A stretch of DNA of 64,000 nt from NCBI GenBank assembly GCA_030431525.1, contig JAUIJC010000001.1, positions 5,901 through 69,900 on the forward strand. Direction: 5' to 3'. Each line of letters begins with the position of its first letter. The stretch's first letter is position 1. Below are positions 5,659 through 37,923 of the stretch, piece by piece. This DNA is from Bacteroidia bacterium. GTDB lineage: Bacteria > Bacteroidota > Bacteroidia > Cytophagales > JAAEPT01. The notes below the pieces were generated by a model. It was not told where the DNA came from, did no database searches, and was given only the letters and a program-made list of their open reading frames with translations. The position numbers were made by a program, and so were the translations under genes.

Positions 5659-6240
5659 TTAGAACTGATAAAAGACTGTCTTCCCTCCCACCAAAATCTT
5701 GTTGTCATTCTTTAAACGCTCAATGCAGTTCTCGGCTTTTGCCTCATCGTAATCGAAGAAACGAGTGAGGGCATTTTGCAGGCCCAAAATTGTTTGCGGA
5801 CGACTCAGCATAGGTTGATCCTGCAACCAAGCCACCGCCTTTTCCATCCGATTGTTCGCCAATTCAGCTTGTGTTGGCTGATAATGCCATGAGCTGAACT
5901 TCCGCTCTTTCTGGGTCAAGGTCTGTAACAAACCCTTGAAAAATGGGTTTTTGGAAATGAGAACTACCTCAACGGCTGGATTCAATCGGGTGTCAATCCG
6001 ACCCAATGCAAAGGCGATATGCAGGGCCAAATTGTTCTCCTGAGTGCCATCCACTTTTATCCATTCCAACTGCTCGCCCAAGGGTTGCAACTCCTGAATC
6101 AAATCCAGTGAAACATGGTCCTGTTCCTCGGGAATAATGGCGATAACACGCTCTGCTTCTTCACGAAAATTGAACGGTACTTGGGACAACTCCTCGAATG
6201 GAAGTTGCTCGAAATCAATCAAAAAAACCTTCTTGTTCAT
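5659..6240 (-). CDS. hypothetical protein (yeh-like array member)
   Basis: ORF runs to 6360 but would overlap the upstream 94-aa ORF. An internal ATG (MNKKVFLIDF) at 6240 gives a 193-aa product. Co-directional with neighbours. Confidence 0.45.
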   Translation of the reverse strand: MNKKVFLIDFEQLPFEELSQVPFNFREEAERVIAIIPEEQDHVSLDLIQELQPLGEQLEWIKVDGTQENNLALHIAFALGRIDTRLNPAVEVVLISKNPFFKGLLQTLTQKERKFSSWHYQPTQAELANNRMEKAVAWLQDQPMLSRPQTILGLQNALTRFFDYDEAKAENCIERLKNDNKILVGGKTVFYQF

Positions 6241-6630: not shown

Positions 6631-6730
6631 ATAGGATTTCATCCTATCCTGACATATTTCGCCCTTACAGGGCTGTGACGTGGTAGCCCTGTAAGGGCGA
6701 AATCCGTTAGCGTAGGGTAAAACCCTACGT
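6631..6730. repeat. composite intergenic palindromic element, copy A
   Basis: Small hairpin ATAGGAtttcaTCCTAT at 6631-6647, a 19-bp-stem hairpin ATTTCGCCCTTACAGGGCT/AGCCCTGTAAGGGCGAAAT at 6656-6703 with loop gtgacgtggt, and a third hairpin CGTAGGGtaaaaCCCTACG at 6711-6729. Confidence 0.8.
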
Positions 6731-6794: not shown

Positions 6795-8519
6795 TCATTC
6801 CACCCGCTCCCGAATCGTCCAATTCCGCACCAATCCACTCCCATACAAACCCGTAAAAGGAAAGAAAACCGCCTCGGTGCCATCATGGAAAACCCGCCCC
6901 ATAATCGCCTCAGGAAAGGCCTTGTTCTTATTCATTTTCTCCAAGGCATCAATCAGGCGTTTGGTCGCCTCTGAATAGCGAATCTTAATATCGATGTAAT
7001 CGTCCCGCTCATCAAAAATGGGCTGGGTAAAGACCTGCTCCACCGCATCGAAATTGGGCGTTCCCCAACCTTTTGGACGAAGAATCACTGGCATCGACTC
7101 TTCTGGTGTCAGACTGGGCAATAGACTGGACTGAACCGCCTTCCGCAAGGCACTCCAGTTGGTAAAACCAAACTCATGGGAAAGCCCTGAAACATCCGTA
7201 CTCTGGTAAATCAAAGCCTCGGTTTCCTGACTGGATGAAAGCCTTCGCTCACGGCTGACCTTTGGTGATTTCAGGTCGATGACCGAATGGGTGAGCATCC
7301 GCGCCTCCACATTCAATCCCCAAGGAGCAATCTGGTGAAAAGGCCTAAAGTTGAGTTTTTCGGCATACATGGTCGGCGAGGCTTGGGTGTAACTGAACCA
7401 CTTTTTGGTCCGTTGGTCCACGAAGTAATAGGTGATGCCCTGATAACCTGAGTTCGCCAACCAAGCCTCGGCACCCAAACCAGCCAACCTCAGGCTGGCC
7501 AAAGGCACGTAAGGGCTTTTATGCTCGCCCACCAATTGCGGGAGGTCGCCCTTGCCATGAACAAGCGCTTTTGCAGTCAAATAAAGCCGTTGCAACTGGC
7601 CTTGTATCCCTTGGGGCGTTACCGTCACCTTTTGCTTGAGGTAATCACCCAAGCTGGTTTCCACCCCACGGAGCTTTTTCTCAAGATTTGGCAAATCTGC
7701 ACTATGACAGGCCACGGCCAACTGCCCAGCACGGGGCGGAAGGCTCTCCGGCAAACGTGCCAAACCCATGCCCAGAATCTCGGTACAAAACGCCATAACA
7801 TCAGCCAACAATGGAAATGGAAGATCATAATCGCTTCCCTCAATCAACTCATCAGGATTCATCTCCCCTTGGTCGATGAGATAATGCGCCAAGGCCTCCA
7901 AACGGTGGTAACAAGTACCCTTGGCCTTGCAGGAACAAAGCGAGTTTTTCCATGGCTCCTGCGCAGGAAAAGCGCAGGTGATATTCTCGGCGGGAAAGCT
8001 GATTTGAAGCATGGCCTGCGGAACAATCTCGGCCCGTACACCAAAGGCATAGCGCATGGACAACAGCTTCAAGTCCTTGATATTCGCTTCTTCCTTCAAA
8101 CGTTTTTTGCCCAAAGCCAAGACCTCTGAAAAATCGACTTGAACAAGCTCTTCACCATTCGTTTCTTCCGCATTTCCTTCTTCCAGCCAATGCTCCTTTA
8201 AGTAGAGCAAGGCCATCATCCGATGCTTGCAAAATGTGCGTGACGGACAGGTACAGATGGACGCCTCAATGTCATCCGTGAACACACATTCCGTGGCATC
8301 GTCCCACTTCACGGCCACCTTTCCATCTCCCTCCGAGATTTCAGGAGCATCCATTTTTGCCAGCTCCTTTTGGGCACGCTTGTAAATGCCTTTGTTCGCT
8401 AACAGGATAAAGGCGTTTTCGTCAAGGGTTTGGAGGAAGGATTGGAAGGACATGGGAATTGACGTTACGGCTGTCACCTGCCAACAGCTGTAAGCTTTGG
8501 CGGGTGATAAAATCAACAA
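6795..8519 (-). CDS. SWIM zinc-finger protein (YehQ-like)
   Basis: Two CxCxnCxH SWIM signatures (CTCPSRTFCKH and CSCKAKGTCYH) in a 574-aa ORF. Confidence 0.7.
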   Translation of the reverse strand: MLILSPAKAYSCWQVTAVTSIPMSFQSFLQTLDENAFILLANKGIYKRAQKELAKMDAPEISEGDGKVAVKWDDATECVFTDDIEASICTCPSRTFCKHRMMALLYLKEHWLEEGNAEETNGEELVQVDFSEVLALGKKRLKEEANIKDLKLLSMRYAFGVRAEIVPQAMLQISFPAENITCAFPAQEPWKNSLCSCKAKGTCYHRLEALAHYLIDQGEMNPDELIEGSDYDLPFPLLADVMAFCTEILGMGLARLPESLPPRAGQLAVACHSADLPNLEKKLRGVETSLGDYLKQKVTVTPQGIQGQLQRLYLTAKALVHGKGDLPQLVGEHKSPYVPLASLRLAGLGAEAWLANSGYQGITYYFVDQRTKKWFSYTQASPTMYAEKLNFRPFHQIAPWGLNVEARMLTHSVIDLKSPKVSRERRLSSSQETEALIYQSTDVSGLSHEFGFTNWSALRKAVQSSLLPSLTPEESMPVILRPKGWGTPNFDAVEQVFTQPIFDERDDYIDIKIRYSEATKRLIDALEKMNKNKAFPEAIMGRVFHDGTEAVFFPFTGLYGSGLVRNWTIRERVE

Positions 8520-8528
8520 CTAATTCGG

Positions 8529-8795
8529 TTAGGAATTCTTTGGTGGCTTAAACTTCGGGGAATTCTCACTTCGTTTAGAACGCCTCTCAGTCATCAGATA
8601 AAGGCTTTCCACCTTCTCCCTCGCCCATGGCGTCGCCCGCAAAAACTTGAGGCTGGACTTGACGGATGGATTGCTCTGAAAACAGCGGATGGGAATTAGC
8701 TCGCCCAGTTCCTCCCAACCATAATGGGCAACGAGGTATTCGACAATATCGGCGAGCTTTACACCGTGGAGGGGGTTGTTGGGTTGGTCACTCAT
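8529..8795 (-). CDS. DUF2132/VF530-like small protein
   Basis: 88-aa ORF. N-terminal NNPLHGVKL...YGWEELG...IRCF...[19 protein letters not shown] is recalled as characteristic of the VF530 family. Not verified by search. Confidence 0.45.
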
Positions 8796-8805
8796 GGTTC
8801 TGGCG

Positions 8806-8899
8806 CAGGGGACAAGCCCCTACGTTACGGAATTCAGTTAATAATGGAAGAGTTACTGGTAGTCGCAACTCCGTAACGTAGGGCCTTGTGCCCTACGTC
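8806..8899. repeat. nested hairpin element (CCCTACGTTACGG ... CCGTAACGTAGGG)
   Basis: 13-bp perfect inverted repeat at 8818-8830 and 8871-8883 with a ~40-nt loop. Also AGGGGacaagCCCCT at 8806-8820 and ACGTAGGGCcttgtGCCCTACGT at 8877-8899. Confidence 0.7.
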
Positions 8900-10125: not shown

Positions 10126-10222
10126 ATTGTACCATGGTTTGTACCATGGATTTCATCCATGGCTAACATATTTCGCCCTTACAGGGCTATGACCTGAAAG
10201 CCCTGTAAGGGCGAAATATGTC
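10126..10222. repeat. composite intergenic palindromic element, copy B
   Basis: Tandem gtaccatgg x2, hairpin CCATGGAtttcaTCCATGG at 10143-10161, and the same large hairpin at 10167-10221 (ACATATTTCGCCCTTACAGGGCT...AGCCCTGTAAGGGCGAAATATGT) with loop atgacctgaa. Confidence 0.8.
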
Positions 10223-10260: not shown

Positions 10261-10821
10261 CTAAACCATACCTGAAAAATGCTTAAACCCCAGTCCAAAC
10301 TTCACATGTAATTCTTCAATAAATGAGGGCTTTATCGAAGGCCAATTCCAAAAGGTGATGACAAAATTGGTTAGACAAAACCCTTTATTAACAGAGAAAG
10401 AATCCATAGGACTCTCATGTTTACAAGAAGCACAAGTCATCGCTATATTTTCCCCTTCATTCCAACTTCCAACCCTTTCAAAAAAATCGCCAAGGTCCAA
10501 GCCATGTTCAAGTTGATTTGCCTCACAAACAGGACATAGAATCTCTTCTAATTCCATATTACCTCCCGCCGTAGCCACTTGTCGTTCATCTGAAAACTCA
10601 ACTCCACACACGCCACTTGTTGGAATAGACTCCTCATCCTCCACAAGCAATTTGGCAAACTCTCCTGCTCTAAATCCCTCTTTCTCTGATGCCAACAAAC
10701 AATTGCTTGGGATTGAGTCTAAAATCCCCTTCTCATGGAAATAGGAAATCACTTCCTTCTTGGAAATTTCTTGAGGGGGAAAAACAGCGATTAGTTGATA
10801 ATGCGTACTCATCTTTCTCAA
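10261..10821 (-). CDS. hypothetical Cys-rich protein (186 aa)
   Basis: Contains CPVCEAN...CASCKH, a possible zinc-ribbon. 4-bp overlap with the upstream gene suggests translational coupling. No known family recognised. Confidence 0.45.
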   Translation of the reverse strand: MRKMSTHYQLIAVFPPQEISKKEVISYFHEKGILDSIPSNCLLASEKEGFRAGEFAKLLVEDEESIPTSGVCGVEFSDERQVATAGGNMELEEILCPVCEANQLEHGLDLGDFFERVGSWNEGENIAMTCASCKHESPMDSFSVNKGFCLTNFVITFWNWPSIKPSFIEELHVKFGLGFKHFSGMV

Positions 10822-11837
10822 ATGTTCATTAACAAACCTTCCCCTACTGTATTCAACCGCTCCGCCTCCTTCAACACCGCCTCATCCAAGGCCTCCATAT
10901 CCAATACCTCCTTTTCCGTTGTCTGATAAAGCTCGGCCACTTGTCCCCCAATCTTGTTGATGTCTGAGGGATTGAAGAAACTGAAAGCCAGTCGAAGCTC
11001 CGGCAGAATGGCTAAGAATTCCTCCTCGCCGACATTCTGTAAAATATGGTCAAGCCCTTGAAGGAGCTCGCCTCCACTCAGCAAGGTCTCCCGTGCCGTG
11101 GCAAACAAACCTTTGAGGAAGGAAACCGCATTCGCGAAATGGTGTCCTGTTCCATAGAAGAACCCTTCGGCCCTTTTCACCACATCCGCCCGTTCCATTT
11201 CCCCAAGACCCAAGAGCAGTCCCGCCGAGGCACCCTGCAAGGCCACATTCCCGTTTTCAAGGTTTAGTAGACTCTCCAAACCTCCTTGCAACAGCTGTTG
11301 GTCCAACAATCGAGGATGCTCCAACAACAACTGGTAAATGCCCCTAAGGGACGAAATCCGTTTATCTTCCTCTTCTACCCGTGTACCGCCAAGAGTCGCC
11401 ACCAACAAGGCCGTGCGACTCCATCCCTGCTTGAGCACCTCCTCCAATTCCTCATTCAGTTTAAAGTCCAACAGTCGATGAGCATGGAACAGGTAATTGA
11501 GATGGAAACAGGCATCAGAAAGAGAATCAAACTCATGGTCGGACTGCAACTTTTCCTTGAGCTGTGGCAAGAAAAACGGAATCTCATTACCGAGGCCCAT
11601 GCGAAAGGCTTCAACCAAAAGCTTGGCTACTTCCCTTGAATTCACTGCATTTTTCAAGGACTGAAGCAACAACTCACGTCCCGCCTCTTTCAGGCTTCCG
11701 CCAAAAATGGACAGCTCCACCAACATGCCTTCAACGGATGGCGACATGCGGTATTCCCAAATCTCACGAATCAGGTTAGTGTCTTTTTGCTTCGCAAAGT
11801 CAGGTCCTTTCTTCAACTCGCAGAAGGCCGTTCCCAA
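10818..11837 (-). CDS. YehM/DUF5682-like protein, C-terminal portion
   Basis: 339-aa helical ORF immediately after the 442-aa ORF. Combined length (~781 aa) matches single-chain YehM-type proteins (~760 aa). Confidence 0.45.
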   Translation of the reverse strand: MGTAFCELKKGPDFAKQKDTNLIREIWEYRMSPSVEGMLVELSIFGGSLKEAGRELLLQSLKNAVNSREVAKLLVEAFRMGLGNEIPFFLPQLKEKLQSDHEFDSLSDACFHLNYLFHAHRLLDFKLNEELEEVLKQGWSRTALLVATLGGTRVEEEDKRISSLRGIYQLLLEHPRLLDQQLLQGGLESLLNLENGNVALQGASAGLLLGLGEMERADVVKRAEGFFYGTGHHFANAVSFLKGLFATARETLLSGGELLQGLDHILQNVGEEEFLAILPELRLAFSFFNPSDINKIGGQVAELYQTTEKEVLDMEALDEAVLKEAERLNTVGEGLLMNI

Positions 11838-11865: not shown

Positions 11866-13194
11866 TTACGTAGGTGTAGGCTTTTGATAGATGCTCAACG
11901 CCTCTTCTTGGGAATTGTTGGTCGCCACCTTGAGCTTCAACTTTTGGCATTGCTCGCGGAAATCCTCCAAAATGGGTGGCACAGGCGCCTCGTCGCAAAG
12001 ATTGCCGAAACGCTCGCCTTGCAACAGCTTGCCCATTTCCTGCAAGGGCGTGGCATTCATATCCGAAAGCTCGCCTTTGATAAAACAGGAATGCACCCCG
12101 TCCAACAACTCATACACGCCGGCATCCCGTTTTTTGCGCAAGTCACGTAGGCCCAAGGCCAAGTTCAAGGCCTCAATCTCATCGGCGGTGGAAAGAGGCT
12201 CCTCCAACTTGCGAACTGCCCTTCCCGTCCTGACCACATAATCCCGAACCGTCAAGCGATAGGCGTCATCAATGCCCGAGGATTGGATGTTGTCCCAAAC
12301 CTTCTGGTAAAATGCGGGATGAGGCATGCCACTGGCATAGCCCATCACTTGGTCGGCCTCACGGAAGGAATAGGCCATCGGAAAGGTGCCGACCTCTTCG
12401 GGCTTAATCTTTCGAACCTTTTGTTTCTTGGGCTTCTTGGCATTCAACAGCTCCACCAATCCCAAGGTGTGAAAACCACCCGTAACGACTAAAACACGGT
12501 CGTATTTCTCTTGCGCCTCCCGAATCTTTTCGGCCATGAAACGTTCGCGCGCCAAACAGCCTTCTGCCTCCAAGCTTTCCTCGGATTGCTCGATACGGGC
12601 ATAATAGCAATAGCCCAACATGCTGTGGACAAAATCCGCAGTGGACTTGCCCAAGCCGTTCACCTCGTAGTGCTTTTCCCACAATTCATTGAAATCGCGG
12701 ACACCCTCTTTCTCACACAAGGTTTGGATGTAATGGCTTTGAAAAAGGCGATGCTCATCACCGTAAGCCTGCTTGCGCCCTTCCTTCCGCAAGCCTTTCT
12801 GCTCTTGGCTCGCCAACAAAATATTGGGGTAGTTCAAATCAATGAACTCGGTTTTGACACCATGCTCCAAGCCCTTCTTGAGAATCACCAACTCTGGGGA
12901 ATAATCGAGAAAAGGATAGTAACAGCGATAGCGTTTGTCTTTCTCGCCCAGCATTCCGCCCTTGTCATGAAAACTGTAATAAATGGCGATGGGCGTTTCC
13001 GTGTCAGAATGTACCAACAAGGGGTTGAGGTGGTTGGTGTCCTCAGGTCCCTCGATAAGGATGCAATCGGGCTGGTATTCCTCAAACACCCTCTCCAAAT
13101 GCCATGAACAGGCTGGGCTGTGGTGGCGGACTGGAAAAAAAACGGTGTTGGTGGTGAGGTTGAAGGATTGGGAGAAGAGGTCTTGGAGGGTCAT
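11866..13194 (-). CDS. YehM/DUF5682-like protein, N-terminal portion
   Basis: 442-aa ORF starting ...FFPVRHHSPACSWHL..., a motif I associate with the DUF5682 N-terminus. Sits between the AAA and vWA genes as in yehLMP. Confidence 0.45.
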   Translation of the reverse strand: MTLQDLFSQSFNLTTNTVFFPVRHHSPACSWHLERVFEEYQPDCILIEGPEDTNHLNPLLVHSDTETPIAIYYSFHDKGGMLGEKDKRYRCYYPFLDYSPELVILKKGLEHGVKTEFIDLNYPNILLASQEQKGLRKEGRKQAYGDEHRLFQSHYIQTLCEKEGVRDFNELWEKHYEVNGLGKSTADFVHSMLGYCYYARIEQSEESLEAEGCLARERFMAEKIREAQEKYDRVLVVTGGFHTLGLVELLNAKKPKKQKVRKIKPEEVGTFPMAYSFREADQVMGYASGMPHPAFYQKVWDNIQSSGIDDAYRLTVRDYVVRTGRAVRKLEEPLSTADEIEALNLALGLRDLRKKRDAGVYELLDGVHSCFIKGELSDMNATPLQEMGKLLQGERFGNLCDEAPVPPILEDFREQCQKLKLKVATNNSQEEALSIYQKPTPT

Positions 13195-13212: not shown

Positions 13213-13313
13213 GACGATGGGCTTTACGCCCATCGCTATCATATTTCGCCCTTACAGGGCTGTGACGTGGTAGCCCTGTAAGGGCGAAATATGTTAGCAT
13301 AGGACAACCTCCT
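13213..13313. repeat. composite intergenic palindromic element, copy C
   Basis: Hairpin CGATGGGCtttaCGCCCATCG at 13215-13234, a large hairpin at 13240-13293 identical to copy A including the loop, and hairpin CATAGGAcaaccTCCTATG at 13299-13317. Confidence 0.8.
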
Positions 13314-13375
13314 ATGTCTTCGTTAATTGCGACGATTGTGAAAAATGCGACGAACAAAATGTTACAATTATCCCC

Positions 13376-14554
13376 TCATTTCAACCTCCCCGAAGCCTCA
13401 TAATACTTCTTCCACAACCCCTCCTCACTAATCGCCCGTTGCTTGATGACCACATCGAAATAAGCCTTCAAACGGCCCAAGTCATCCTCGTTTTCCTTCA
13501 ACACCGCCCCGACCAAGTTTTCTACAATGCGCTCTGGAGCGATAGCCTCCTCTCCATAATAATGCGCCGAAAGCGCTGACTGATAATAAACAGAGACAGC
13601 CTCTGCGGTACTCATCACCGTGAAAGGCGATTCCACACGATGCCCTTCCTTGGTCACACCCTCCCGCAACTCTTGGAAGGTGGTCGCCAACAAGCCCACC
13701 AAATCGGTATCGATTTGAGGTTCAATGCCATTGGAACGAAGCAATTCCATACTCTCCTGCTCAATGATTTTTGCCTCCAAATTCACATTGGAAATCGGCC
13801 TCACCGTCTCAAAATTGAAACGGCGCTTCAGCGCGGCACTCATTTCGTTCACCCCCTTGTCGCGCGTGTTTGCCGTGGCAATCAGGTTAAAACCCGCCTT
13901 GGCATACAGATGACCTTCCTGTCCCAATTCAGGAATGGTCATCACCTTATCGGAAAGCACACTCACCAAAGCATCCTGCGTTTCGGCCGGACAACGCGTG
14001 ATTTCCTCGAAACGGGTAATCAGTCCGTCCCTCATCCCCACATATAATGGTGATGGCACCAAGGCCTCAGGCACTGGACCCTTAGCCAAAAGCAGGGCGT
14101 AGTTCCAAGAATATTTGATCATGTCCTCGGTGACGGCTGCTGTTCCCTGAATAGTGTGCGCCGTGGTGCCACAAATAGCAGCCGAAAGCAACTCGCTCAA
14201 CATGGTCTTGGCTGTGCCCGGCTCCCCGACCAGCATGAGTCCTCTATTGCCCGCCAAAGTGACAATGCAACGCTCTATCAAGGCGTCATTACCGAAAAAC
14301 TTGCGCGAGATGGTAATTTCCTCTCCCTTATGAACAAGTGGCTTCTCCGCTCCTAGAATAAAGGTGCGAACGGCCTGAGGAGAAAGTTTCCAAGTCGCTG
14401 GTTTCGGGGCTTTGTCATGGGTGGCCAAGGCCTCCAACTCTTTCTGATAGCTAACTTCAACGGGTGGCTTGAGGTGCTGGTTTTGGGACATGTTTTGGAA
14501 AAGTTTGAACTTGTGGTGCAATAGTACGCAATCCTCTGCAATCGGGGGAGGCAT
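13376..14554 (-). CDS. MoxR-like AAA+ ATPase (YehL-like)
   Basis: Walker A LVGEPGTAKT, an AAA_5/MoxR-type core, ~390 aa. Alternative start MSQNQHL at 14491. Confidence 0.75.
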   Translation of the reverse strand: MPPPIAEDCVLLHHKFKLFQNMSQNQHLKPPVEVSYQKELEALATHDKAPKPATWKLSPQAVRTFILGAEKPLVHKGEEITISRKFFGNDALIERCIVTLAGNRGLMLVGEPGTAKTMLSELLSAAICGTTAHTIQGTAAVTEDMIKYSWNYALLLAKGPVPEALVPSPLYVGMRDGLITRFEEITRCPAETQDALVSVLSDKVMTIPELGQEGHLYAKAGFNLIATANTRDKGVNEMSAALKRRFNFETVRPISNVNLEAKIIEQESMELLRSNGIEPQIDTDLVGLLATTFQELREGVTKEGHRVESPFTVMSTAEAVSVYYQSALSAHYYGEEAIAPERIVENLVGAVLKENEDDLGRLKAYFDVVIKQRAISEEGLWKKYYEASGRLK

Positions 14555-14557
14555 TGG

Positions 14558-14635
14558 AGACTTTAGACATTAGACTTTGGACTTAAGCTTTTTGATCAGC
14601 ATAAAGCTTAAGTCCAAAGTCTAAAGTCTAACGTC
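14558..14635. promoter_or_regulatory. long near-perfect palindrome in a divergent intergenic region
   Basis: GACTTTGGACTTAAGCTTT (14573-14591) is the exact reverse complement of AAAGCTTAAGTCCAAAGTC (14603-14621). Arms extend to ~27 bp with one mismatch. The loop contains a TGATCA palindrome. It sits between the AAA ATPase start and the oxidase start. Confidence 0.6.
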
Positions 14636-14649
14636 CCTTCCAACTCCAT

Positions 14650-16182
14650 ATGAAACGCCGCACCTTTCTCAAGCTTTCCTCTCTTTCCTTACTTCCCCTT
14701 CTGACCAACAGCTGTGATGAGGAGGAACATGCATTTGACATTGAAATCCAATCCGACCAAAAGACGGGGCATTTGGTGTTCGAAAGCTTCCTTTATCCCG
14801 AGGGAAAAACGATGGAGACAGAGACGCTGATTGTAGGCGGTGGGATTGCTGGTCTGAGCGCAGCCTATGAACTGAAAGAACGGGATTTTCTGCTATGCGA
14901 ACTTTCCACGGCTTTGGGTGGTAGCTCCAGCGCACAGCATTTCAAAGGCTTGTCCTTTAGCCAAGGCGCGCACTACGATCTTTCCTATCCTGAATATTAT
15001 GGTGCTGAGGTGTTGGAGATGCTCAAAGAGCTGGGCATCATCTACCACGACCCTCACCGGAAATGTTGGGACTTTAAACAAAAGGAATACCTGATTCCTG
15101 AGGCCATTGAAAGCCGTACTTTTTCTGACGGAAAATTCAGGGCAGGCGTCCTTCCCGAGGGAAAATTGAAAGATGATTTCCTGAAACTGATTCAGCCCTA
15201 TTTGGGGAAAATGCATCAGCCTACTCGCCTCATTCCCGAAGAGGTACGACACCTAGATAACCTTACCTTTTTAGATTGGCTGAATCAGCACCTCAGCCTC
15301 AATACTGAATTTATCCGTGCACTGGATTACCACATGATGGACGATTATGGTGCTGGCGCTGCCGATGTTTCAGCCTTGACTGGCATTCATTATTACCGTT
15401 GTCGCCCCTACTATTCACAGCATGTAGAACTGTTCTCACCACCTGAGGGAAACAATTTCTTCATTCAAAAACTTGCTCAGCAAGTCCCTGAAAAACACCT
15501 CAAAACCAAACATCTCGTTCGGAAAATCAGCAAACTGGAAGGTGGCTTTAAGGCTGAGGTGGTTGACATTGAAAAAAAACAGGTCCATACCATAAAATGC
15601 AAAGGGGTGATTTATGCGGGCCATAAACACGCCCTAAAACACATTTGGAAAGATGACTACCCACTTTTTGAGAACAACCGCTATGCACCGTGGTTGGTGA
15701 TGAACTTTGTGTTAAAGCCTGAAATCAATAGTCAAGAAGTGTTTTGGCAGAATGAATTGCTTACCAATAATCGGGCATTGATGGGCTTTGTGGATTCAGC
15801 CAGTCAATTCACGGAATCCCAAGAATACCGCGTGCTGAACACCTATTTCTGTTTCAAGCCCGAGGAACGGAAATATTTGGCGAACATCGATGATAACGCC
15901 CAAGCATTGACGAAGGAAACCATCAACATCATCAATCAATATTTTGATCAAGACATTTCCAGCTTGGTGGAAAAAGTGTTTATCAAAGTGATGGGACATG
16001 CCATGTCCATTCCTTATCCCAACTATCTGTTTAGGGATGTCAACTCAAAGCGAAGTGAGGAAAAGCTGATCTTTGCTGGGGTTGATTCTGGACAACTGCC
16101 ACTCTTTTTTGAAGCGGCCGATTCTGGATTAATGGCCGCCAAACTGCTTAAAAGCCAATATTCGGGTTCGATGAAAAATTGA
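14650..16182 (+). CDS. Tat-exported lipoprotein, FAD-dependent amine-oxidase-like oxidoreductase
   Basis: N-terminal MKRRTFLKLSSLSLLPLLTNSC (twin-arginine signal plus lipobox Cys) and a Rossmann dinucleotide motif LIVGGGIAGLSAA. Confidence 0.65.
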   Translation: MKRRTFLKLSSLSLLPLLTNSCDEEEHAFDIEIQSDQKTGHLVFESFLYPEGKTMETETLIVGGGIAGLSAAYELKERDFLLCELSTALGGSSSAQHFKGLSFSQGAHYDLSYPEYYGAEVLEMLKELGIIYHDPHRKCWDFKQKEYLIPEAIESRTFSDGKFRAGVLPEGKLKDDFLKLIQPYLGKMHQPTRLIPEEVRHLDNLTFLDWLNQHLSLNTEFIRALDYHMMDDYGAGAADVSALTGIHYYRCRPYYSQHVELFSPPEGNNFFIQKLAQQVPEKHLKTKHLVRKISKLEGGFKAEVVDIEKKQVHTIKCKGVIYAGHKHALKHIWKDDYPLFENNRYAPWLVMNFVLKPEINSQEVFWQNELLTNNRALMGFVDSASQFTESQEYRVLNTYFCFKPEERKYLANIDDNAQALTKETINIINQYFDQDISSLVEKVFIKVMGHAMSIPYPNYLFRDVNSKRSEEKLIFAGVDSGQLPLFFEAADSGLMAAKLLKSQYSGSMKN

Positions 16183-16287
16183 TTTATTCCCGATTTGGGA
16201 AAACCGTAAAAAGCCCATCACTTTTTGGGGTCCAGTCTCCGTATCTCTTCTTGTCGGCATTCCCGCCGTTTTTTAAGATTTGACCTT

Positions 16288-16524
16288 ATGGACCCAAGAC
16301 GAGTTCACCGCATTACTCCCAAGCCTGTTATTATTCGGGTAGGACGCAGACCATCGGGACCACGCGCTGCCAGTTCGCGCAGTGTGGGGCTTTCCATGGT
16401 TGCGACCGTTGGATATGTACTTTTTGTTGTCGGCTCATTTGCCTTTTTTAGTAAGGAACATGCCGGCGAACTAAAAAGGTTAAAAGGCAGCATTATTAAG
16501 GTGATTGGAAACAGTGACAAATAA
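16288..16524 (+). CDS. possible small membrane protein
   Basis: 79-aa ORF from an internal ATG with one hydrophobic helix (VGLSMVATVGYVLFVVGSFAFF). Weak call. Confidence 0.2.
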   Translation: MDPRRVHRITPKPVIIRVGRRPSGPRAASSRSVGLSMVATVGYVLFVVGSFAFFSKEHAGELKRLKGSIIKVIGNSDK

Positions 16525-16550
16525 AAAAAGGGGTGAACAATGTCACCCCT
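16522..16550 (-). terminator. intrinsic terminator after the spermidine-synthase-like gene
   Basis: On the minus strand, GGGGTGAcattgtTCACCCC followed by TTTTTTTT. On the plus strand it is preceded by an A-run, so it may act bidirectionally. Confidence 0.6.
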
Positions 16551-16560
16551 GAGTTCCCTT

Positions 16561-18114
16561 TTAATAAACGCTCCAGTCGCCATTTAGATAATAGCTGTGT
16601 AAAACGGGCTCCCGAATCGTATTGACTTTCACTTTTGAAACATCAACAGGATCCTTTCCGAAGGAAGTGATTTGGAGCATTCCGTCATTATTCAGCCAAC
16701 GTGTTTCCACATCATCAAAAGTGAGTCCTCGGAGACGTTGGATAACTTGCTCCTGTGTGCCATTCTTGGCCGCAAGGACATATCCCCATTCTCCCAAGGT
16801 CAAAACCTGTTTATGAAGAGGAACAGTAGAAAAACCAGCGGCTTGCATGGACTTTTCAATGCATTTGAAAGCCTTGAAAGCAAACTGTGGCGTACCTGAT
16901 TGGCTAATCAACACGCCATTTGGAGTCATTTGCTTGTAGCAAAGCTGATAAAACTCCTTTGAGTAAAGCTTCGCCAAATCGGTATTCTTAGGATCGGGAA
17001 GATCCACAATAATGACATCGTAGAAATCTGGTGTCTCGCTGAGGAACAAGAAACCATCAGTGTTCACAATACTCAGCTTCTCACTGTCCATTGAACCCTT
17101 GTTCAATTTAGTAAGGATGGGATGCTGCTTGCCCAAATTGGTCATCGCCGAATCCAAATCCACCAAAGTGATTTTCTCCACAGAAGGATACTTAAGGATT
17201 TCACGAACGGCGCAACCATCACCTCCTCCCATTACCAACACATTTTTCGGGTGACCTGACAACTTCATTGACGGATGCACCAATGGCTCGTGGTAATGCC
17301 ATTCATCCAGCGTGCTTAACTGCTGATTATTGTCGATATACAACCAGTAATTCTCCTTCCACTGGGTAATCACAATCTTTTGGTAACGGCTCTGCTTCTC
17401 AAAAACGACCTTCTCTGCATAGCGCGCCTGTTCGCTGAACTCAATGATTGGCGAGGAGAAAATCACCCCAAGAATCAATATCACGGCTACTCCAGCCCCA
17501 CTACCCCACAGCAGTTTTGACCTTGTAACGTAGCTTTTGAAGCGATCCAAAAGCAAGAGGGCGACAATAAAATTGATGCCTCCCAATACAAATGGCACGT
17601 AGCGCATCCCCAAATATTGAATACCGATAAAGGCAAAGAACATCCCGCCGATTAGGCTTCCGAAGTAATCCACGGCCATGATGGAGGAAATATTTTCCCG
17701 CAAATCCTCAAACTCATCATTAAGGCGAGTAACAAGGGGAATTTCCATGCCTATCAACAGGCCAATAATGATGCTGAGGGAGTAGATGATAAGTGGGGTA
17801 AGTTGCGTATAACCAGCCGCCACATAAACGATCAACGCAGAGAATGAACTGAAAAAGGACAGCACGAATTCAATCCCCACAAATTTCTCCAGTAGGTTCT
17901 CCGACATTTTTCGGCTCAGCTGGCTTCCCATACCCATGGAAAACATCATGATGGAAATCACCATCGTCCACTGGAACACTGAATTACCCAAAAAGTAATT
18001 GGCCAAAGTCGCCAACACATATTCCGCCACAATGCCCGACAAACCAGTGGCAAAAATGGCCAGCTTGAGGATATGTGAACCCCACAATTTCTTGTTGCCC
18101 ATATTTTCTATCAA
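16561..18114 (-). CDS. polyamine aminopropyltransferase (spermidine-synthase-like) fused to an N-terminal polytopic membrane domain
   Basis: C-terminal VLVMGGGDGCAVREILKYP...VDLD matches the SpeE GGGDGG signature. N-terminal ~200 aa carries ~7 TM helices. Confidence 0.75.
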   Translation of the reverse strand: MIENMGNKKLWGSHILKLAIFATGLSGIVAEYVLATLANYFLGNSVFQWTMVISIMMFSMGMGSQLSRKMSENLLEKFVGIEFVLSFFSSFSALIVYVAAGYTQLTPLIIYSLSIIIGLLIGMEIPLVTRLNDEFEDLRENISSIMAVDYFGSLIGGMFFAFIGIQYLGMRYVPFVLGGINFIVALLLLDRFKSYVTRSKLLWGSGAGVAVILILGVIFSSPIIEFSEQARYAEKVVFEKQSRYQKIVITQWKENYWLYIDNNQQLSTLDEWHYHEPLVHPSMKLSGHPKNVLVMGGGDGCAVREILKYPSVEKITLVDLDSAMTNLGKQHPILTKLNKGSMDSEKLSIVNTDGFLFLSETPDFYDVIIVDLPDPKNTDLAKLYSKEFYQLCYKQMTPNGVLISQSGTPQFAFKAFKCIEKSMQAAGFSTVPLHKQVLTLGEWGYVLAAKNGTQEQVIQRLRGLTFDDVETRWLNNDGMLQITSFGKDPVDVSKVKVNTIREPVLHSYYLNGDWSVY

Positions 18115-30118: not shown

Positions 30119-30224
30119 CCCCTCTCTGTCATTCTGACGAAGGAAGAATCTGATAAAAAGAAAAACAATGTTGTCAGCCAGTTCCTTCGCTAACGCTCAG
30201 GATGACAGCCTGTAGTTCAGACCA
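30119..30224. repeat. ~100-bp direct repeat, copy 1 (flanks GIY-YIG gene)
   Basis: cccctctctgtcattctgacgaaggaagaatctg...gttccttcgctaacgctcaggatgacagcctgtagttcagacca. It is internally an imperfect inverted repeat and aligns to copy 2 along its length. Confidence 0.75.
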
Positions 30225-30242
30225 CTTTGTTTGACAAAGCTA

Positions 30243-30548
30243 TTACTGCCCTATTTCCTCATTCAAAAAATCCCATCGGGGATTAAACTCGTTGATCAAC
30301 GCCTCTTTCTTTCGTCTCACCCAACCTTTGATTTCCTTTTCTCTGGCGATGGCATCATTGACATATTGAAAGGTTTCCCAATAAATCAGGTTGTAGCAGA
30401 AGTACTTCCCTGCAAAAGATTTTTTTGACTCCATGTTGTCGGCTAAGTGTTCCTCCATTCGTCTTCTCAAGTCATTGGTCACTCCTGTATAAAGGACTGT
30501 TTTCTTTGGGTTCGTGGTGATGTAGACGAAATAACAATGCTTGTTCAT
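30243..30548 (-). CDS. GIY-YIG nuclease family protein (UPF0213/YhbQ-like)
   Basis: CYFVYITTNPKKTVLYTGVTNDLRRRMEEH carries the GIY-(10-11)-YTG motif plus an Arg and Glu in the right spacing. 101 aa. Confidence 0.8.
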   Translation of the reverse strand: MNKHCYFVYITTNPKKTVLYTGVTNDLRRRMEEHLADNMESKKSFAGKYFCYNLIYWETFQYVNDAIAREKEIKGWVRRKKEALINEFNPRWDFLNEEIGQ

Positions 30549-30597
30549 TGTTGAAAAAATTTTCGTTTTGAGACTCTTTTAAACTCCACTTAGCAAA

Positions 30598-30691
30598 CTC
30601 CCTCCTGTCCTTCTGACGAAGGAAGAATCTGGCAAAGATTTTCAATCAGTTCCTTCATTACACTCAGGATAACAGCCCAGATTTTAGACCA
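30598..30691. repeat. ~100-bp direct repeat, copy 2 (flanks GIY-YIG gene)
   Basis: ctccctcctgtccttctgacgaaggaagaatctg...gttccttcattacactcaggataacagcccagattttagacca. Same orientation as copy 1, ~80% identity by eye with one ~11-bp indel. Confidence 0.75.
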
Positions 30692-30881
30692 TAGAACCAG
30701 AACCCTTTAACTCAAAGACAAGAAATAGAATGACCATTAGGTAAATGAGAATTCCAGTAATGATATAGACCACCATTTTAGAATCCTTCTTTGCGTAATA
30801 CCCGAAAGTAAGGCAGTGAAATACAGTAGAACTTAACTCTCCAAGGGTCAAAACCACTTCCAAAACTAATTCTAACACCAC
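30684..30881 (-). CDS. possible small hydrophobic protein (65 aa)
   Basis: ORF with two hydrophobic segments. Lies between the flotillin terminator and repeat copy 2. Weak call. Confidence 0.2.
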   Translation of the reverse strand: MVLELVLEVVLTLGELSSTVFHCLTFGYYAKKDSKMVVYIITGILIYLMVILFLVFELKGSGSMV

Positions 30882-30902
30882 CGAGCTATTGGGGAAAGAC
30901 CT

Positions 30903-30931
30903 TTAAAAAAAGGGCAAGTTTCCCTGCCCTT
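30903..30931 (-). terminator. intrinsic terminator after flotillin gene
   Basis: On the minus strand, AGGGCAgggaaacTTGCCCT followed by TTTTTTT, 25 bp past the stop codon. Confidence 0.55.
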
Positions 30932-30955
30932 TTCTCATCATCACAAATCAAACGA

Positions 30956-33849: not shown

Positions 33850-34575
33850 TTAGATGCTGGAGTCAGCAGCTTTACCACCATTCATTTTAGCTTTCAAAGC
33901 AGCCAACGCATCAGATGCAGCGGCTTGAGGCTCATCCTTCAACGCAGAATCGATTTCCTCGTCAACAGAACGGTTCTCATTAGCGATGTCGCCGTAGGCT
34001 TCAGCCAAAGACTCCTCCTCGGCAACTTTGTCCTTCATGCGCTCCAACATGGAGATCGTGCTTGAAGAATCGATTTGAGCCATCTGCTTGTTGAGGTTCT
34101 TGGTGGTTGAAGCCACCTTCTGACGAGCCTTCAAGGTCTTGAGCTCGTTCTCCCACTTGCTGATGTTATGGCGAAGGGTGCGAACGTTACCTTCCAATTT
34201 CTCTAACTGCTTGTCGAAGTGAGCAACCTCTTTGGACAAACGAGCAGTGTGTTCGTCACACTCTTGCTTTTTCAACAAGGCGTCACCGGCCAAACGGTCG
34301 GCATCAGCAGCAGTCATCCCTCCGGCCTCAGCCTTCTGAAGGATTTGCATCGCCTTGCGCTCGTAGTCAGCACCTTTGTTTTTATAGCTGCTCAAATCGT
34401 TTTTTGAGCGGATAGCCAACGCTTTTACTTCAGCCAAGGCGTGAAGCGCCTTGTCCAAGTCAGCTTTCATATCACGGATGCCCTGTTCGGTCATCTTGAT
34501 TGGGTTCTCTAGGGCGTCAATCGCAGAGTGTGCTTCAGCCTGACCCACTTTGAATATTCTTTTGAAAATGTTCAT
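33850..34575 (-). CDS. pspA: PspA/IM30 (Vipp1) family protein
   Basis: MNIFKRIFKVGQAEAHSAIDALENPIKMTEQGIRDMKADLDKA... is a canonical PspA/IM30 N-terminus. The protein is predicted entirely coiled coil. Confidence 0.85.
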   Translation of the reverse strand: MNIFKRIFKVGQAEAHSAIDALENPIKMTEQGIRDMKADLDKALHALAEVKALAIRSKNDLSSYKNKGADYERKAMQILQKAEAGGMTAADADRLAGDALLKKQECDEHTARLSKEVAHFDKQLEKLEGNVRTLRHNISKWENELKTLKARQKVASTTKNLNKQMAQIDSSSTISMLERMKDKVAEEESLAEAYGDIANENRSVDEEIDSALKDEPQAAASDALAALKAKMNGGKAADSSI

Positions 34576-34604
34576 AAGTCTAAATGTTTAGAAGTTTAAA
34601 CTGC

Positions 34605-35009
34605 TTAGGCAGTCACTTGTGAAAATTTAATCATCTCGTCGGCGTACTCGCTCAACAAGAGGCTCAGGGAATTGATGGAACCTTCCAACTCATTAAGGTC
34701 AAGGTTTTCCAATTGGAGAGTGTCCCTGAAGATGACTTTACGACCAGAATCGTCCAATACAAAGGCGCCGTGGATAATATCCCTGTTCTTCTGAAGAAGC
34801 TGTTTCAATACTGACGCGTCTGCATCGTCGCTCAAATCAAAAAGGTACTGCTCAATGATCAACAATGGATCTGCACAACCCAACACTAAGTTGGAAATAC
34901 CTTCATCTTCTTTGCTGACGACTAATACTTCGTCATTTTCATCTTCCAAAACGATATTGTACTCCAATTCGAGCACGTAATCCTTAACCTTTGAAAAGTT
35001 ATCTTTCAT
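34605..35009 (-). CDS. PspA-associated small acidic protein (possibly YjfI/DUF2170-like)
   Basis: 134-aa acidic ORF directly upstream of the pspA-like gene, mirroring the E. coli yjfI-yjfJ arrangement. No sequence verification. Confidence 0.35.
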   Translation of the reverse strand: MKDNFSKVKDYVLELEYNIVLEDENDEVLVVSKEDEGISNLVLGCADPLLIIEQYLFDLSDDADASVLKQLLQKNRDIIHGAFVLDDSGRKVIFRDTLQLENLDLNELEGSINSLSLLLSEYADEMIKFSQVTA

Positions 35010-35269
35010 GGTTTAAAAGTTGTTGTTTAAAGTTCTTCGACCAAGTTAGAAATTCTCTGACAACAAGGCTTACCTTGCAGGACAATTTGCCAAGATTTTC
35101 TTCCTTGGTCGCCCCCAGACAATTTCCTGAGTGAAAAGCTGGGGGGCTACGGTGGATGGATGGACCTGTTCATAGGCGTCATGGGTTAGTGGTTTGCTTG
35201 CCGTCAACAATACAAACGTACTAACCTTTTGAGAGGTTCCAAAATTTTTAGCAAAAAAAATTTAGCAAC

Positions 35270-36028
35270 ATGGCCCTTATCGGGAAAAACATACGAAAGA
35301 TTAGAAGCGTAAAGCAACTCAGCCAACAAGCCTTTGCAGACCTTTTTGGGGTCTCCAGAGCCTCTGTAGGCTCTTATGAGGAAGGTCGGGCTGATCCGAA
35401 AATCGACACCATCATTGCCATTGCAAATTATTTTAGCATAACTTTGGAAGAGTTCCTCACCAAGGAACTAACGGTGAACGATCTCTACCACTTTGATGTC
35501 TTTAAGGCGAAACTGGGGAAGGAGAAAAAGCCAAACACGAAGAAGCCTAACGAGAATGAAATGCCTCTTGTGACGGCTAAATTGCGCGACGAATACATCA
35601 AGAAACACCAGAACAAGGATTTCCTAATGGATTTGCCGAGCATTATGCTCCCCAAAAAGAGCAATGCGCTAAACAGGGCTTTTGAGGCAAACAAAGATTC
35701 AACGGCAGGAAATTTCAAGAAGGGCGACCTTTTGATCAGTCAGGCTATTGACTCCGAAAAGATGTTAGTCGGCCAAGTTTATGTAGTCCATACAGATGCC
35801 CGCCTCCTCTTCAGGAGGCTTTTATCCAAAACGGACGAAAACTTGGAGTTCTCCCCTGGCGATGAAAAGTCCAGAGAAATCTTGGACCAAAAAGACATCA
35901 TTGAGGCTTGGGAGGTGATTGGAAAATACACCACTGAGCTTAGGGCCAGAAAATCCCTTGAGGAAAGGGTGGCCTTGTTGGAAGAAAAGGTGAGTAAGCT
36001 GGAATTGGCTTCTACAATGAACCTATAA
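35270..36028 (+). CDS. XRE-family HTH regulator with LexA/cI-like C-terminal domain
   Basis: N-terminal IRKIRSVKQLSQQAFADLFGVSRASVGSYEEGRADPKIDTIIAIANYF (HTH_XRE). C-terminal GDLLIS...VGQVYVVHT...LLFRRL resembles the S24/LexA fold. Divergent from the psp operon. Confidence 0.65.
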   Translation: MALIGKNIRKIRSVKQLSQQAFADLFGVSRASVGSYEEGRADPKIDTIIAIANYFSITLEEFLTKELTVNDLYHFDVFKAKLGKEKKPNTKKPNENEMPLVTAKLRDEYIKKHQNKDFLMDLPSIMLPKKSNALNRAFEANKDSTAGNFKKGDLLISQAIDSEKMLVGQVYVVHTDARLLFRRLLSKTDENLEFSPGDEKSREILDQKDIIEAWEVIGKYTTELRARKSLEERVALLEEKVSKLELASTMNL

Positions 36029-36034
36029 TTCACC

Positions 36035-36433
36035 TTACTCCGTCACCATTCCCCGCTCAATGGACTGAAAGGAATGTTCTGTTGATTCTAACTTCTCAGC
36101 CAGATAATCATAGGCTTCCTGCAAACGCATATCCTCACCACAAGTGAAGATATCAACAGCTGCGTAGCCATGCTCAGGCCAGGTATGAATGGAAAGGTGA
36201 CTCTCCATCACGACCACTACTCCAGTCACTCCCATTGGGGAAAAAGGATGGAAAACGGACTTGATGACCGTGGCATTAGCAACCTCAGCTGCTTCCAAAA
36301 GAAAGGTTTCCAAACGCTCCAAATTATCGAGGGTTTGGACATTACAACCATGGAATTCAGCCAATAAATGACGCCCCAAAGGTTTAGGTAAAACGGGCAA
36401 TGACTTGTCTTTCTTGGGATTAAGTTTCGTCAT
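36035..36433 (-). CDS. speH: S-adenosylmethionine decarboxylase proenzyme (small class 1B, SpeH-type)
   Basis: GRHLLAEFHGC..., the self-cleavage site VVVMESHLSIHTWPE (E-S) and ...AVDIFTCG; 132 aa. Confidence 0.8.
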   Translation of the reverse strand: MTKLNPKKDKSLPVLPKPLGRHLLAEFHGCNVQTLDNLERLETFLLEAAEVANATVIKSVFHPFSPMGVTGVVVVMESHLSIHTWPEHGYAAVDIFTCGEDMRLQEAYDYLAEKLESTEHSFQSIERGMVTE

Positions 36434-36505
36434 TCAAGCAATTTACAAAGGAAGTGTGGCATTCTTTCTATATTTAAACTTTGGCAAACCAAAAATCTAC
36501 CATTC

Positions 36506-37060
36506 ATGGGACTATTTGATTTTTTCCGCGATAAAAAAGAGTCGGAAGACCATAAACCATCTGATCAACTAACCGTTTCTGACCTCAAAAAGGGCTACAT
36601 CATCGATTACTTCATGAAGTCTTGGGAAGTAAAGGCTTGTTATGAGTACGACTGGGGAAATAACTTTTTCTCTAAAGAATTTAAACTCGATGCTGGTGAT
36701 GAGGTGATTTACCTCAGCGTGGAAGAGGACGATGAAATCACGTTGGCGGTATCTCGTGGTGTGCCTTTGATGTCCATCGACAAAAACCTCAAGTACAACA
36801 TCATCGACCGCGACGAGCCAGGAATCCGTGAGATTGTGTACAAAGGCAAGGTCTTTTACTACAACGAATCAAGCCAAGGCATTCAGCGAGACTTGGATTA
36901 CTACAACGAACCTCACAAATTTGTGGCTTGGGAATACACGGACGAGGAGGAAAAAGAATTTATCTACATCTCTCGTTGGGGCGAAGAGGAAATCGAAGCC
37001 GCACATGGTGAGTATGTGGAAAACTATGAGTTCTCGAACATTCTACCTGTAAAACATTAA
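36506..37060 (+). CDS. hypothetical protein, possibly DUF4178
   Basis: LKKGYIIDYFMKSWEVKACYEYDWG...DEVIYLSVEEDDEITLAVSR resembles the DUF4178 pattern. Genomic context with DUF350-like, lipoprotein and AdoMetDC genes. Confidence 0.4.
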   Translation: MGLFDFFRDKKESEDHKPSDQLTVSDLKKGYIIDYFMKSWEVKACYEYDWGNNFFSKEFKLDAGDEVIYLSVEEDDEITLAVSRGVPLMSIDKNLKYNIIDRDEPGIREIVYKGKVFYYNESSQGIQRDLDYYNEPHKFVAWEYTDEEEKEFIYISRWGEEEIEAAHGEYVENYEFSNILPVKH

Positions 37061-37078
37061 CACAACCTTTTTAGGACC

Positions 37079-37828
37079 ATGAAAAAAATTGTGTCTTTCT
37101 CCCTGATGGGGATGCTGCTTTCATTAGCTTTTCTGTCATCCTGTGGTGGAGGAAAAAAGAAATACGTCAAGAGCCCTGTTGACAAACTGATCACCAAATA
37201 CAGCAACGACTCCACTTTTACCATTATCCTTCGTGATATGGATGTGGACGAGTCTGGTTGGGATCCAGTCTACAAGCACAAATACGATGTCATCCGCGTG
37301 GTGAATGACAAACCTCAAAAGGATTCCACAGGCTGGGAAAAAGTGAGTGAAGACTTCTTCTGGGAGCATGAGAAAAACCTTGGGATGGCCTTGGCTACAA
37401 AAACCGAGGACGGAAAAATCACGAAAGTTGCCTCCCCTCCAGGGTACAACAACTACGTTGGCAACAAACGTTATGGGTACTGGGACAACAGTGGATCTTG
37501 GCATTTCTTCGCCAACTACATGATGTTCAGCACCATGATGAACCTGGCGACCAGACCAATTTATCGCTACGATTATGACACCTATCGTCGTAGCTATTAT
37601 GGCAAGCGCCCATACTATGGTTCATACCAGTCTAAGCCAATCTACGGAACAAGAAGTAGCTATACGAAGGCTTCTCGTCCTAACTTCTTTACCCGTCGTT
37701 CCAGCAAAACTGGATGGTCGTCTTCAAGCCGAAGCACAGGTTATTCTGGTCGTACTTCCTCAAAAGGAACTGGCCGCTACAACAGCAGCCGCAGCTACCG
37801 TTCAAGCGGTGGTGGATACGGAAAATAA
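37079..37828 (+). CDS. lipoprotein with Y/R/S-rich low-complexity C-terminal tail (possibly DUF1190/YjfM-like)
   Basis: Signal peptide plus lipobox (LAFLSSC). A globular ~150-aa region is followed by a ~90-aa tail rich in Y, R, S and G. Confidence 0.55.
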   Translation: MKKIVSFSLMGMLLSLAFLSSCGGGKKKYVKSPVDKLITKYSNDSTFTIILRDMDVDESGWDPVYKHKYDVIRVVNDKPQKDSTGWEKVSEDFFWEHEKNLGMALATKTEDGKITKVASPPGYNNYVGNKRYGYWDNSGSWHFFANYMMFSTMMNLATRPIYRYDYDTYRRSYYGKRPYYGSYQSKPIYGTRSSYTKASRPNFFTRRSSKTGWSSSSRSTGYSGRTSSKGTGRYNSSRSYRSSGGGYGK

Positions 37829-37923
37829 TTCCGTCATACCAACAAGAAAAGGTTCACATCATACAGGTGTGAACCTTTTTTTATACCTTCCGTTCTAACC
37901 TGAAGTTTTAACCTTACTGTTTT

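Follow-up and report, generated by a model that had tools for sequence, protein, structure and literature searches.

What is the long palindrome that separates two divergent genes in a cytophagalean member of the Bacteroidia, and does it serve either of them? The question is raised by a window of 64,000 nucleotides (the whole stretch of DNA analysed here; positions 5,901 to 69,900 of contig JAUIJC010000001.1, assembly GCA_030431525.1), in which an AAA_5 (MoxR-like) ATPase gene and an amine-oxidase-like flavoprotein gene point away from each other across a spacer occupied by an inverted repeat. The analysis revealed that both arms of this repeat are composed of degenerate tandem copies of a heptanucleotide, (A/G)GACTTT, and it is very probable that the element arose, as an inverted repeat, from tandem heptamers. 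As such it is a new example, in the form of an unusually tight inverted pair, of a known class, the bacterial heptanucleotide simple repeat, which is common and poorly understood. The origin of the element, transcription across it and any regulatory effect that it may have are matters that we infer from sequence.

The first-pass annotation of this region had described a long perfect palindrome in the divergent spacer, with an 11-nt loop containing TGATCA. The palindrome was confirmed by a renewed scan of the sequence and by an independent read assembly, and the loop was read directly. The 19-mer GACTTTGGACTTAAGCTTT is present at 14573-14591 on the plus strand and at 14603-14621 on the minus strand; no further copy with up to 3 mismatches was found in the 64-kb window, and the mean number of chance matches in shuffled sequence was 0.02. 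Perfect complementarity of the arms covers 22 nt (14570-14591 versus 14603-14624, with the centre base at 14597), and longer, imperfect arms of 36 nt (14559-14594 and 14600-14635) are complementary at 33 of 36 positions (92%). The parts of the element, none of which has a strand, are as follows.

14559..14594: left arm, a degenerate heptamer array (AGACTTT, AGACATT, AGACTTT, GGACTTA, AGCTTTT)

14570..14591: left perfect core, 22 nt, holding the off-consensus units GGACTTA and AGCTTT

14592..14602: spacer between the perfect arms, TTGATCAGCAT, 11 nt, with TGATCA at 14593-14598

14603..14624: right perfect core, 22 nt, mirroring the left core exactly

14600..14635: right arm, the inverse array (AAAGCTT, AAGTCCA, AAGTCTA, AAGTCTA, ACGTC)

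14547..14647: hairpin or cruciform predicted by folding, in its whole extent with weak outer pairs (GGAG/CTCC and TTGGA/TCCAA)

Folded as single-stranded DNA, the element reached -35.2 kcal/mol, compared with -8.3 +/- 2.5 kcal/mol for shuffled sequences (z = -11), and none of the 200 shuffles equalled it. The palindrome is not a fold-back artefact of assembly, since a Logan short-read contig (L007, run ERR3420974) corresponding to positions 13261-15182 is identical to the window at all 1922 bases, and since the two flanks carry different genes.

The direct repeats previously noted in the arms are real; what had been missed is that each arm is a tandem array of heptanucleotides. Tandem Repeats Finder detected 3.9 copies of AGACTTT on the left (14558-14584, period 7) and 5.0 copies of TAAAGTC on the right (14602-14635, period 7), and these two arms are the only period-7 arrays that it identified in the window. 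Each arm comprises about five units of (A/G)GACTTT, the second arm being the inverse of the first. Both contain at least three head-to-tail 7-nt units and, with the spacer corrected to 158 bp (see below), both are non-coding, as is required of heptanucleotide arrays of this class. The off-consensus units GGACTTA and AGCTTT are mirrored exactly between the arms, which indicates that the arms are genuine copies of each other in inverted orientation, as opposed to two arrays that arose independently. The array would most likely have grown by replication slippage, and the near-perfect palindrome may then have been made, or kept, through inverted duplication or template switching.

The pattern RGACNTTRGAC has seven matches in the window, where 0.44 would be expected; six lie within the arms and the seventh at 62-72. 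The latter belongs to a region (60-105) in which two AGAC heptads (AGACATT and AGACCTT) lead into a 13-bp hairpin, AGACCTTAGCTCC...GGGGCTAAGGTCTTTTTT, followed by a T-run. This structure resembles an intrinsic terminator made in part from the same kind of heptad.

As an intergenic imperfect palindrome capable of forming a hairpin, the element resembles repetitive extragenic palindromes (REP) and bacterial interspersed mosaic elements, and a mobile palindromic repeat was among the possibilities raised by the first-pass annotation. The 19-mer arm was searched for in the window, in the genomes of 185,579 species (one genome each) and in metagenome contigs, these collections not including the source genome. 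Three genome matches, which is approximately the number expected by chance among so many species, and four metagenome-contig matches were obtained, all of them with a single arm; a two-arm copy of the palindrome was found neither in the window nor in the species genomes or metagenome contigs, and BLAST searches of plasmids and phages gave no match below E = 0.9. The suggestion of a mobile repeat was thus not upheld, and a reading of the element as specific to this locus, which additional copies were expected to undermine, still stands.

A true family of palindromic repeats is present in the same window. Its members, TTTCGCCCTTACAGGGCT-N10-inverse (about 64-90 nt including flanks), are located at 6657-6702, 10171-10216 and 13244-13289; each of these three copies falls between genes of the AAA_5 operon, and the remaining 50 kb contain none. 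The short-read contig passes through the heptad palindrome, yet it stops 1.3 kb away, at 13261, exactly where the left arm of one of these repeats ends, as a multi-copy repeat would lead one to expect. In contrast to REP elements and miniature inverted-repeat transposable elements (MITE), which occur in multiple near-identical copies and break short-read assemblies, the heptad palindrome has no near-identical copy (up to 3 mismatches in the window, and in the collections searched), leaves the assembly unbroken and shares no sequence with the TTTCGCCCTTACAGGGCT family. It therefore acts as a single-copy sequence and is probably locus-specific.

The presence of this family nearby, together with the phase variation of Haemophilus influenzae hmw1A, which is driven by heptamer repeats (PMC12721329), might still suggest that the element belongs to a mobile palindromic family (REP, MITE or similar) or is a phase-variable contingency repeat that switches expression by copy number. 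We consider this extremely improbable, given that the element is unique in the window, that the genome, metagenome, plasmid and phage searches returned only single-arm matches in roughly chance number, and that the short-read contig crosses it and breaks at the REP-like repeat instead. Moreover, no target-site duplication was seen by eye in the flanks (no specific test was run), and the units are degenerate, which disfavours slippage, with identical copy numbers in the two assemblies.

The heptanucleotide class provides a closer match. Bacteria carry an excess of heptameric repeats, and Xanthomonas has been noted to contain inverted pairs of them (PMC4692102); Bacteroidetes, too, have such arrays between genes, in part at junctions of rearrangement or gene transfer (PMC4679880). 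The described families, i.e. (i) the cyanobacterial short tandemly repeated repetitive (STRR) sequences, (ii) GGGAATC of Xanthomonas and Nostoc, and (iii) TAACTGA of Beggiatoaceae, Cyanobacteria and Bacteroidetes, resemble the array studied here in that they consist of tandem 7-nt units placed between genes, usually in 2-6 copies, and sometimes form inverted pairs able to fold into stem-loops (PMC4692102), as is the case at this locus. Their function is largely unknown, and in Bacteroidetes they sometimes mark junctions of rearrangement or gene transfer (PMC4679880). The present element differs from them in that (A/G)GACTTT is not a described unit, in that those families have many copies per genome, whereas the 64 kb analysed contain one locus plus the two-unit site at 62-72, and in that its arrays form an unusually tight, perfect palindrome. 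It is not a cyanobacterial STRR in the strict sense, as the protein homologues at this locus come from Cytophagales and other Bacteroidota. To our knowledge, (A/G)GACTTT is absent from the STRR units, and our literature search found no paper mentioning this unit in bacteria.

Arrays of (A/G)GACTTT were nevertheless detected in Acidobacteriota, in a high-GC metagenome contig and in many viral contigs, with up to 16 units and with several inverted pairs or tight palindromes; they often constitute AT-rich islands within high-GC DNA. A Pyrinomonadaceae genome carries five copies of AAAGTCC, followed by four of GGACTTT and 4.6 of GGACATT, between convergent genes (5673-5872), and the two open reading frames (ORFs) flanking this array have no Pfam match. 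The high-GC metagenome contig, which has 24 identical bases in common with the palindrome's right arm, carries five copies of AAAGTCC in a divergent spacer, beside an inverted pair of CGTGAAA (four copies) and TTTCACG (four copies), and a second inverted pair between tandem genes (array regions 867-983 and 7360-7440); the neighbours of these arrays are housekeeping genes, encoding cobalamin adenosyltransferase and succinyl-CoA ligase. Further array loci were recorded in contigs L017 (4724-4935), L027, L028, L029, L032, L036 and L138. No period-7 array was present in 32 kb of related Cytophagales loci.

In the viral contigs, 38 loci of (GGACTTT)n and 8 of (AGACTTT)n were counted. Control heptads of the same composition gave 83, 72 and 5 loci (one of these controls happens to resemble the known TAACTGA unit), and for this reason the idea that GGACTTT is a special unit was rejected. 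An inverted partner within 150 nt was found for 6 of 50 non-redundant arrays, compared with 0 of 40 control flanks. By this test the array of L028 is a tight palindrome; that of L029 looks like one by eye and falls below the test threshold.

Whether the palindrome could act on the adjacent genes depends on where these begin. The spacer had been given as 95 bp (14555-14649); it is in fact 158 bp, the discrepancy being due to an over-long ORF call for the ATPase. The AAA_5 homologues (369-371 aa) align from Met22 of the window protein, which places the start codon at ATG 14491, and none of them supports the upstream ATG at 14554, so that the longest ORF (13376-14554) is 21 codons too long. On the other side, ATG 14650 is supported by the N-terminus that it yields (MKRRTFLK...), which fits a twin-arginine signal. 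The resulting arrangement is given below, together with candidate promoter elements resembling the -7 box of Bacteroidota, whose consensus is TAnnTTTG.

13376..14491, minus strand: AAA_5 (MoxR-like) ATPase gene, 371 aa, with corrected start; first gene of its operon

14492..14649, no strand: divergent spacer, corrected to 158 bp from the homologue-based AAA_5 start

14500..14507, plus strand: candidate -7 box AAAGTTTG, 1 mismatch to TAnnTTTG; the sole plus-strand box in the spacer, upstream of the palindrome

14519..14526, minus strand: candidate -7 box TACTATTG, 1 mismatch to TAnnTTTG; on the AAA_5 side of the palindrome, 28 nt 5' of the start codon ATG 14491

14650..16182, plus strand: amine-oxidase-like flavoprotein gene, assigned by domain match, with a twin-arginine-type motif (RRTFLK) at the N-terminus

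A sigma-70 scan of the spacer gave nothing relevant. The predicted hairpin ends 2 nt 5' of ATG 14650 and its base lies just 2-14 nt from this codon, so that no promoter fits between them; transcription of the amine-oxidase gene must therefore start within or upstream of the palindrome. Given an upstream start, a hairpin with 34-36 bp, of which 22 bp form a perfect core, would be placed in the 5' leader, against the start codon. Use of AAAGTTTG would include the whole palindrome in an amine-oxidase leader of about 136 nt, and use of TACTATTG would give an AAA_5 mRNA without it. As predicted for RNA, the region 14514-14680 folds with -67.9 kcal/mol (z = -8.8) and its stem reaches to within 2 nt of the AUG. 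Translation initiation in Bacteroidota needs an open leader, and a stem of 34-36 bp with a perfect core of 22 bp is a good substrate for RNase III. The leader hairpin would consequently limit translation initiation of the amine-oxidase gene and, by analogy with hmw1A, would offer RNase III an ideal double-stranded target.

Heptamers are the most over-represented of the long simple repeats in bacteria, yet as far as we know hmw1A is the only heptamer-repeat case with a tested mechanism. Its (ATCTTTC)n array is transcribed as part of a long hairpin in the 5' untranslated region, which is cut by RNase III, and this sets the level of expression (PMC12721329); at the present locus the corresponding behaviour is predicted from sequence. 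The two loci share a heptamer array that precedes a gene and supplies one arm of a long hairpin (here in the predicted fold). The opposite arm, however, is a G-rich region in hmw1A and an inverted array here, and the hmw1A repeats are perfect and variable in number, whereas those of the window are degenerate and the same in two assemblies.

Of the effects that the element might have, one as a hairpin in the amine-oxidase mRNA leader is the most likely, because the base of the hairpin is so near the start codon, although as a function it is held with considerable doubt. The whole favoured reading, in which a heptamer-derived inverted repeat also acts as a leader hairpin, comes close to being probable without reaching it (this grading blends the firmer structural part with the weaker functional one). 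Several observations weigh against it. The plus-strand box is weak, with its one mismatch and with the nearest TTG 14 nt upstream; the start site is only predicted, and were it to lie within the right arm, the RNA would lack the hairpin. There is no close relative, the best amine-oxidase homologue being 54% identical. The arrays are degenerate and do not differ between the two assemblies, i.e. they show no sign of copy-number switching, bearing in mind that the window and the short-read contig, identical in repeat number, may come from the same population. The viral-contig arrays have no orientation bias with respect to start codons (10 versus 10) and thus lend no general support to a leader role. 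Finally, the element could be without any function. We nonetheless regard a mobile repeat, or a repressor site of the classical type, as less likely than an element that forms a structure in a leader or promoter.

Other identities of the hairpin were considered and rejected. An intrinsic terminator is not indicated, as no terminator-like site was found in 14300-14800 and both flanking genes point away. Comparison with Rfam 15 on both strands produced only sub-threshold matches to microRNA precursors (at most 38 bits, with thresholds of 56-85), which are generic look-alikes of long hairpins. A replication origin or terminus was dismissed because the cumulative GC skew declines without a break in this part of the window.

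The same complementarity could be expressed in DNA. Transcription-driven supercoiling is well established in the form of the twin-domain model, and negative supercoiling between divergent polymerases might extrude the palindrome as a cruciform, alter promoter geometry and so couple the two operons. The location between divergent genes, the arms perfect over 22 bp, the AT-rich centre TTTTTGATCAGCATAAA and the high stability of the hairpin under DNA parameters make cruciform formation physically plausible, as judged from modelling. However, the 11-nt non-complementary centre makes extrusion costlier, and cruciforms are rare in vivo. As an explanation of the element we consider a supercoil-driven cruciform very unlikely.

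The first-pass annotation had also proposed an operator for a dimeric regulator. Operators of the classical type have short half-sites, an adjacent regulator gene and counterparts at other promoters. The element, with arms of 22-36 nt, greatly exceeds a dimer operator in length; the products of the two flanking genes are not known regulators, no other intergenic TTRGAC...GTCYAA half-site pair was detected in the 64-kb window, and no half-sites are present near the only helix-turn-helix gene checked (35270).

An operator of a different kind is conceivable, in which multiple dimers of a small DNA-binding protein would occupy the 7-bp units, direct and inverted, in a cooperative manner and repress or activate both divergent promoters, in the manner of the omega repressor (ParB) of pSM19035. 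Omega operators and parS sites consist of 6-10 unspaced heptads, direct or inverted, located at promoters, and at least four contiguous units are necessary for full activity (PMC4627068, PMC9499535). The palindrome has about 5 + 5 unspaced heptads, in direct runs facing each other, at promoters whose positions are predicted, and its left edge abuts the candidate -7 box of the AAA_5 operon. The consensus of the omega heptad is WATCACW (PMC4627068), to which AGACTTT, AGACATT and GGACTTA are unrelated; furthermore, omega sites have mixed orientations, whereas the present element, which is chromosomal and from Bacteroidota, is a strict two-block palindrome. No ribbon-helix-helix domain was found in the flanking genes or in the 10 gap ORFs scanned (out of 33 small ORFs, mostly in gaps), and no helix-turn-helix gene is adjacent.

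The sole candidate for a heptad-binding protein is encoded 6 kb from the palindrome, within the AAA_5 operon. This 88-aa ORF (8529-8795, minus strand) matches the VF530 putative DNA-binding family (PF09905, E = 2e-34), is missing from the Firmicutes versions of the operon and adjoins another hairpin (8804-8897). We know of no VF530 protein that acts as a sequence-specific regulator, which speaks against such an array, as do the lack of half-sites in other intergenic regions of the window and near gene 35270 and the recurrence of the heptad unit beside unrelated genes in unrelated phyla. On balance, a protein-binding array appears unlikely.

A further possibility is that the element has no selected function. 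It may be a neutral by-product, an array that slippage produced at a junction specific to this lineage, where a rearranged polyamine gene cluster meets an AAA_5 operon that was possibly acquired, and that template switching made palindromic. In two relatives, the amine-oxidase gene is situated behind co-directional ion-channel and spermine-synthase-like genes and not behind an AAA_5 operon, which suggests that the present upstream region is a lineage-specific junction. The comparison with relatives proposed by the first-pass annotation could be carried out for these upstream neighbours, which differ; the homologues, at 52-54% identity, provided no comparable spacer. The argument from the junction is weak, since the relatives are distant.

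On the ATPase side, the closest named AAA_5 homologues are from Clostridia (68% identity), although the genome is of Bacteroidota, and this hints, on sequence similarity, at horizontal acquisition. The operon looks degraded and invaded, with a split DUF5682 gene and three REP-like palindromes in its gaps, and the GC content averages about 0.48 left of the element and about 0.455 right of it. Heptamer arrays elsewhere occupy convergent, divergent and tandem intergenic positions alike, and MacGregor described heptamer arrays at junctions of this type in Gramella (PMC4679880). Against a neutral origin it can be argued that the 22-nt perfect core and the 92% complementarity of the arms imply either a very recent origin or maintenance of pairing, and that the element occupies most of a spacer which has to accommodate two promoters, so that expression would hardly be unaffected. 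We consider a neutral junction by-product somewhat improbable, yet nearly as likely as the leader-hairpin mechanism.

The minus-strand AAA_5 operon further includes DUF5682 (in two frames), a 186-aa ORF, VWA_CoxE, the 88-aa VF530-family ORF, a 574-aa ORF, PIN7 and DUF4132, and no match at curated cut-offs (defence-system models, NCBIfam) names it. The operons of the named Clostridia and Firmicutes homologues have a different gene order and an unsplit DUF5682. In the window, the two parts of DUF5682 (10818-11837 and 11866-13194, minus strand) are in different frames, whereas a single ORF of about 805 aa is present in the Firmicutes operons; the split may reflect a frameshift, a pseudogene or a sequencing error.

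The best homologues of the amine oxidase are from Cytophagales and other Bacteroidota, with just 52-54% identity. One relative (L006) has a contiguous polyamine-type cluster (amine oxidase, SpeE-like synthase, DUF350, DUF4178 and PspA), while the corresponding cluster of the window (14650-18114 and 33850-38826) is split by about 15 kb and partly inverted, the intervening genes including SulP, MscS, WD40 and a 1864-aa DUF3686 ATPase. The 378-bp gap after the amine-oxidase gene (16183-16560) contains just two overlapping small ORFs without a Pfam match; relatives carry a gene of 181-344 aa in this place, and the gap may be its remnant. A 101-aa ORF with a GIY-YIG nuclease domain (30243-30548, minus strand) was identified in the otherwise gene-poor gap 30169-30955.

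For the annotation of this genome, these results mean that the start codon of the AAA_5 gene and the length of the spacer need correcting, and that the palindrome should be filed neither as a mobile repeat nor as a proven operator. It is quite unlikely, though worth stating, that the heptad palindrome works as a regulatory device of a kind new to Bacteroidota, be it an RNase III-processed leader hairpin for the amine oxidase or an omega-like, multi-dimer operator read by the VF530-family protein. If this were true, the (A/G)GACTTT arrays of Acidobacteriota, Bacteroidota-like and many viral contigs would represent a widespread functional cis-element and not the debris of slippage. A clean, single-copy, near-perfect inverted pair, located between two promoters and directly next to a start codon, offers a convenient test case for asking whether heptamer arrays act as RNA hairpins, serve as protein-binding arrays or have no role.

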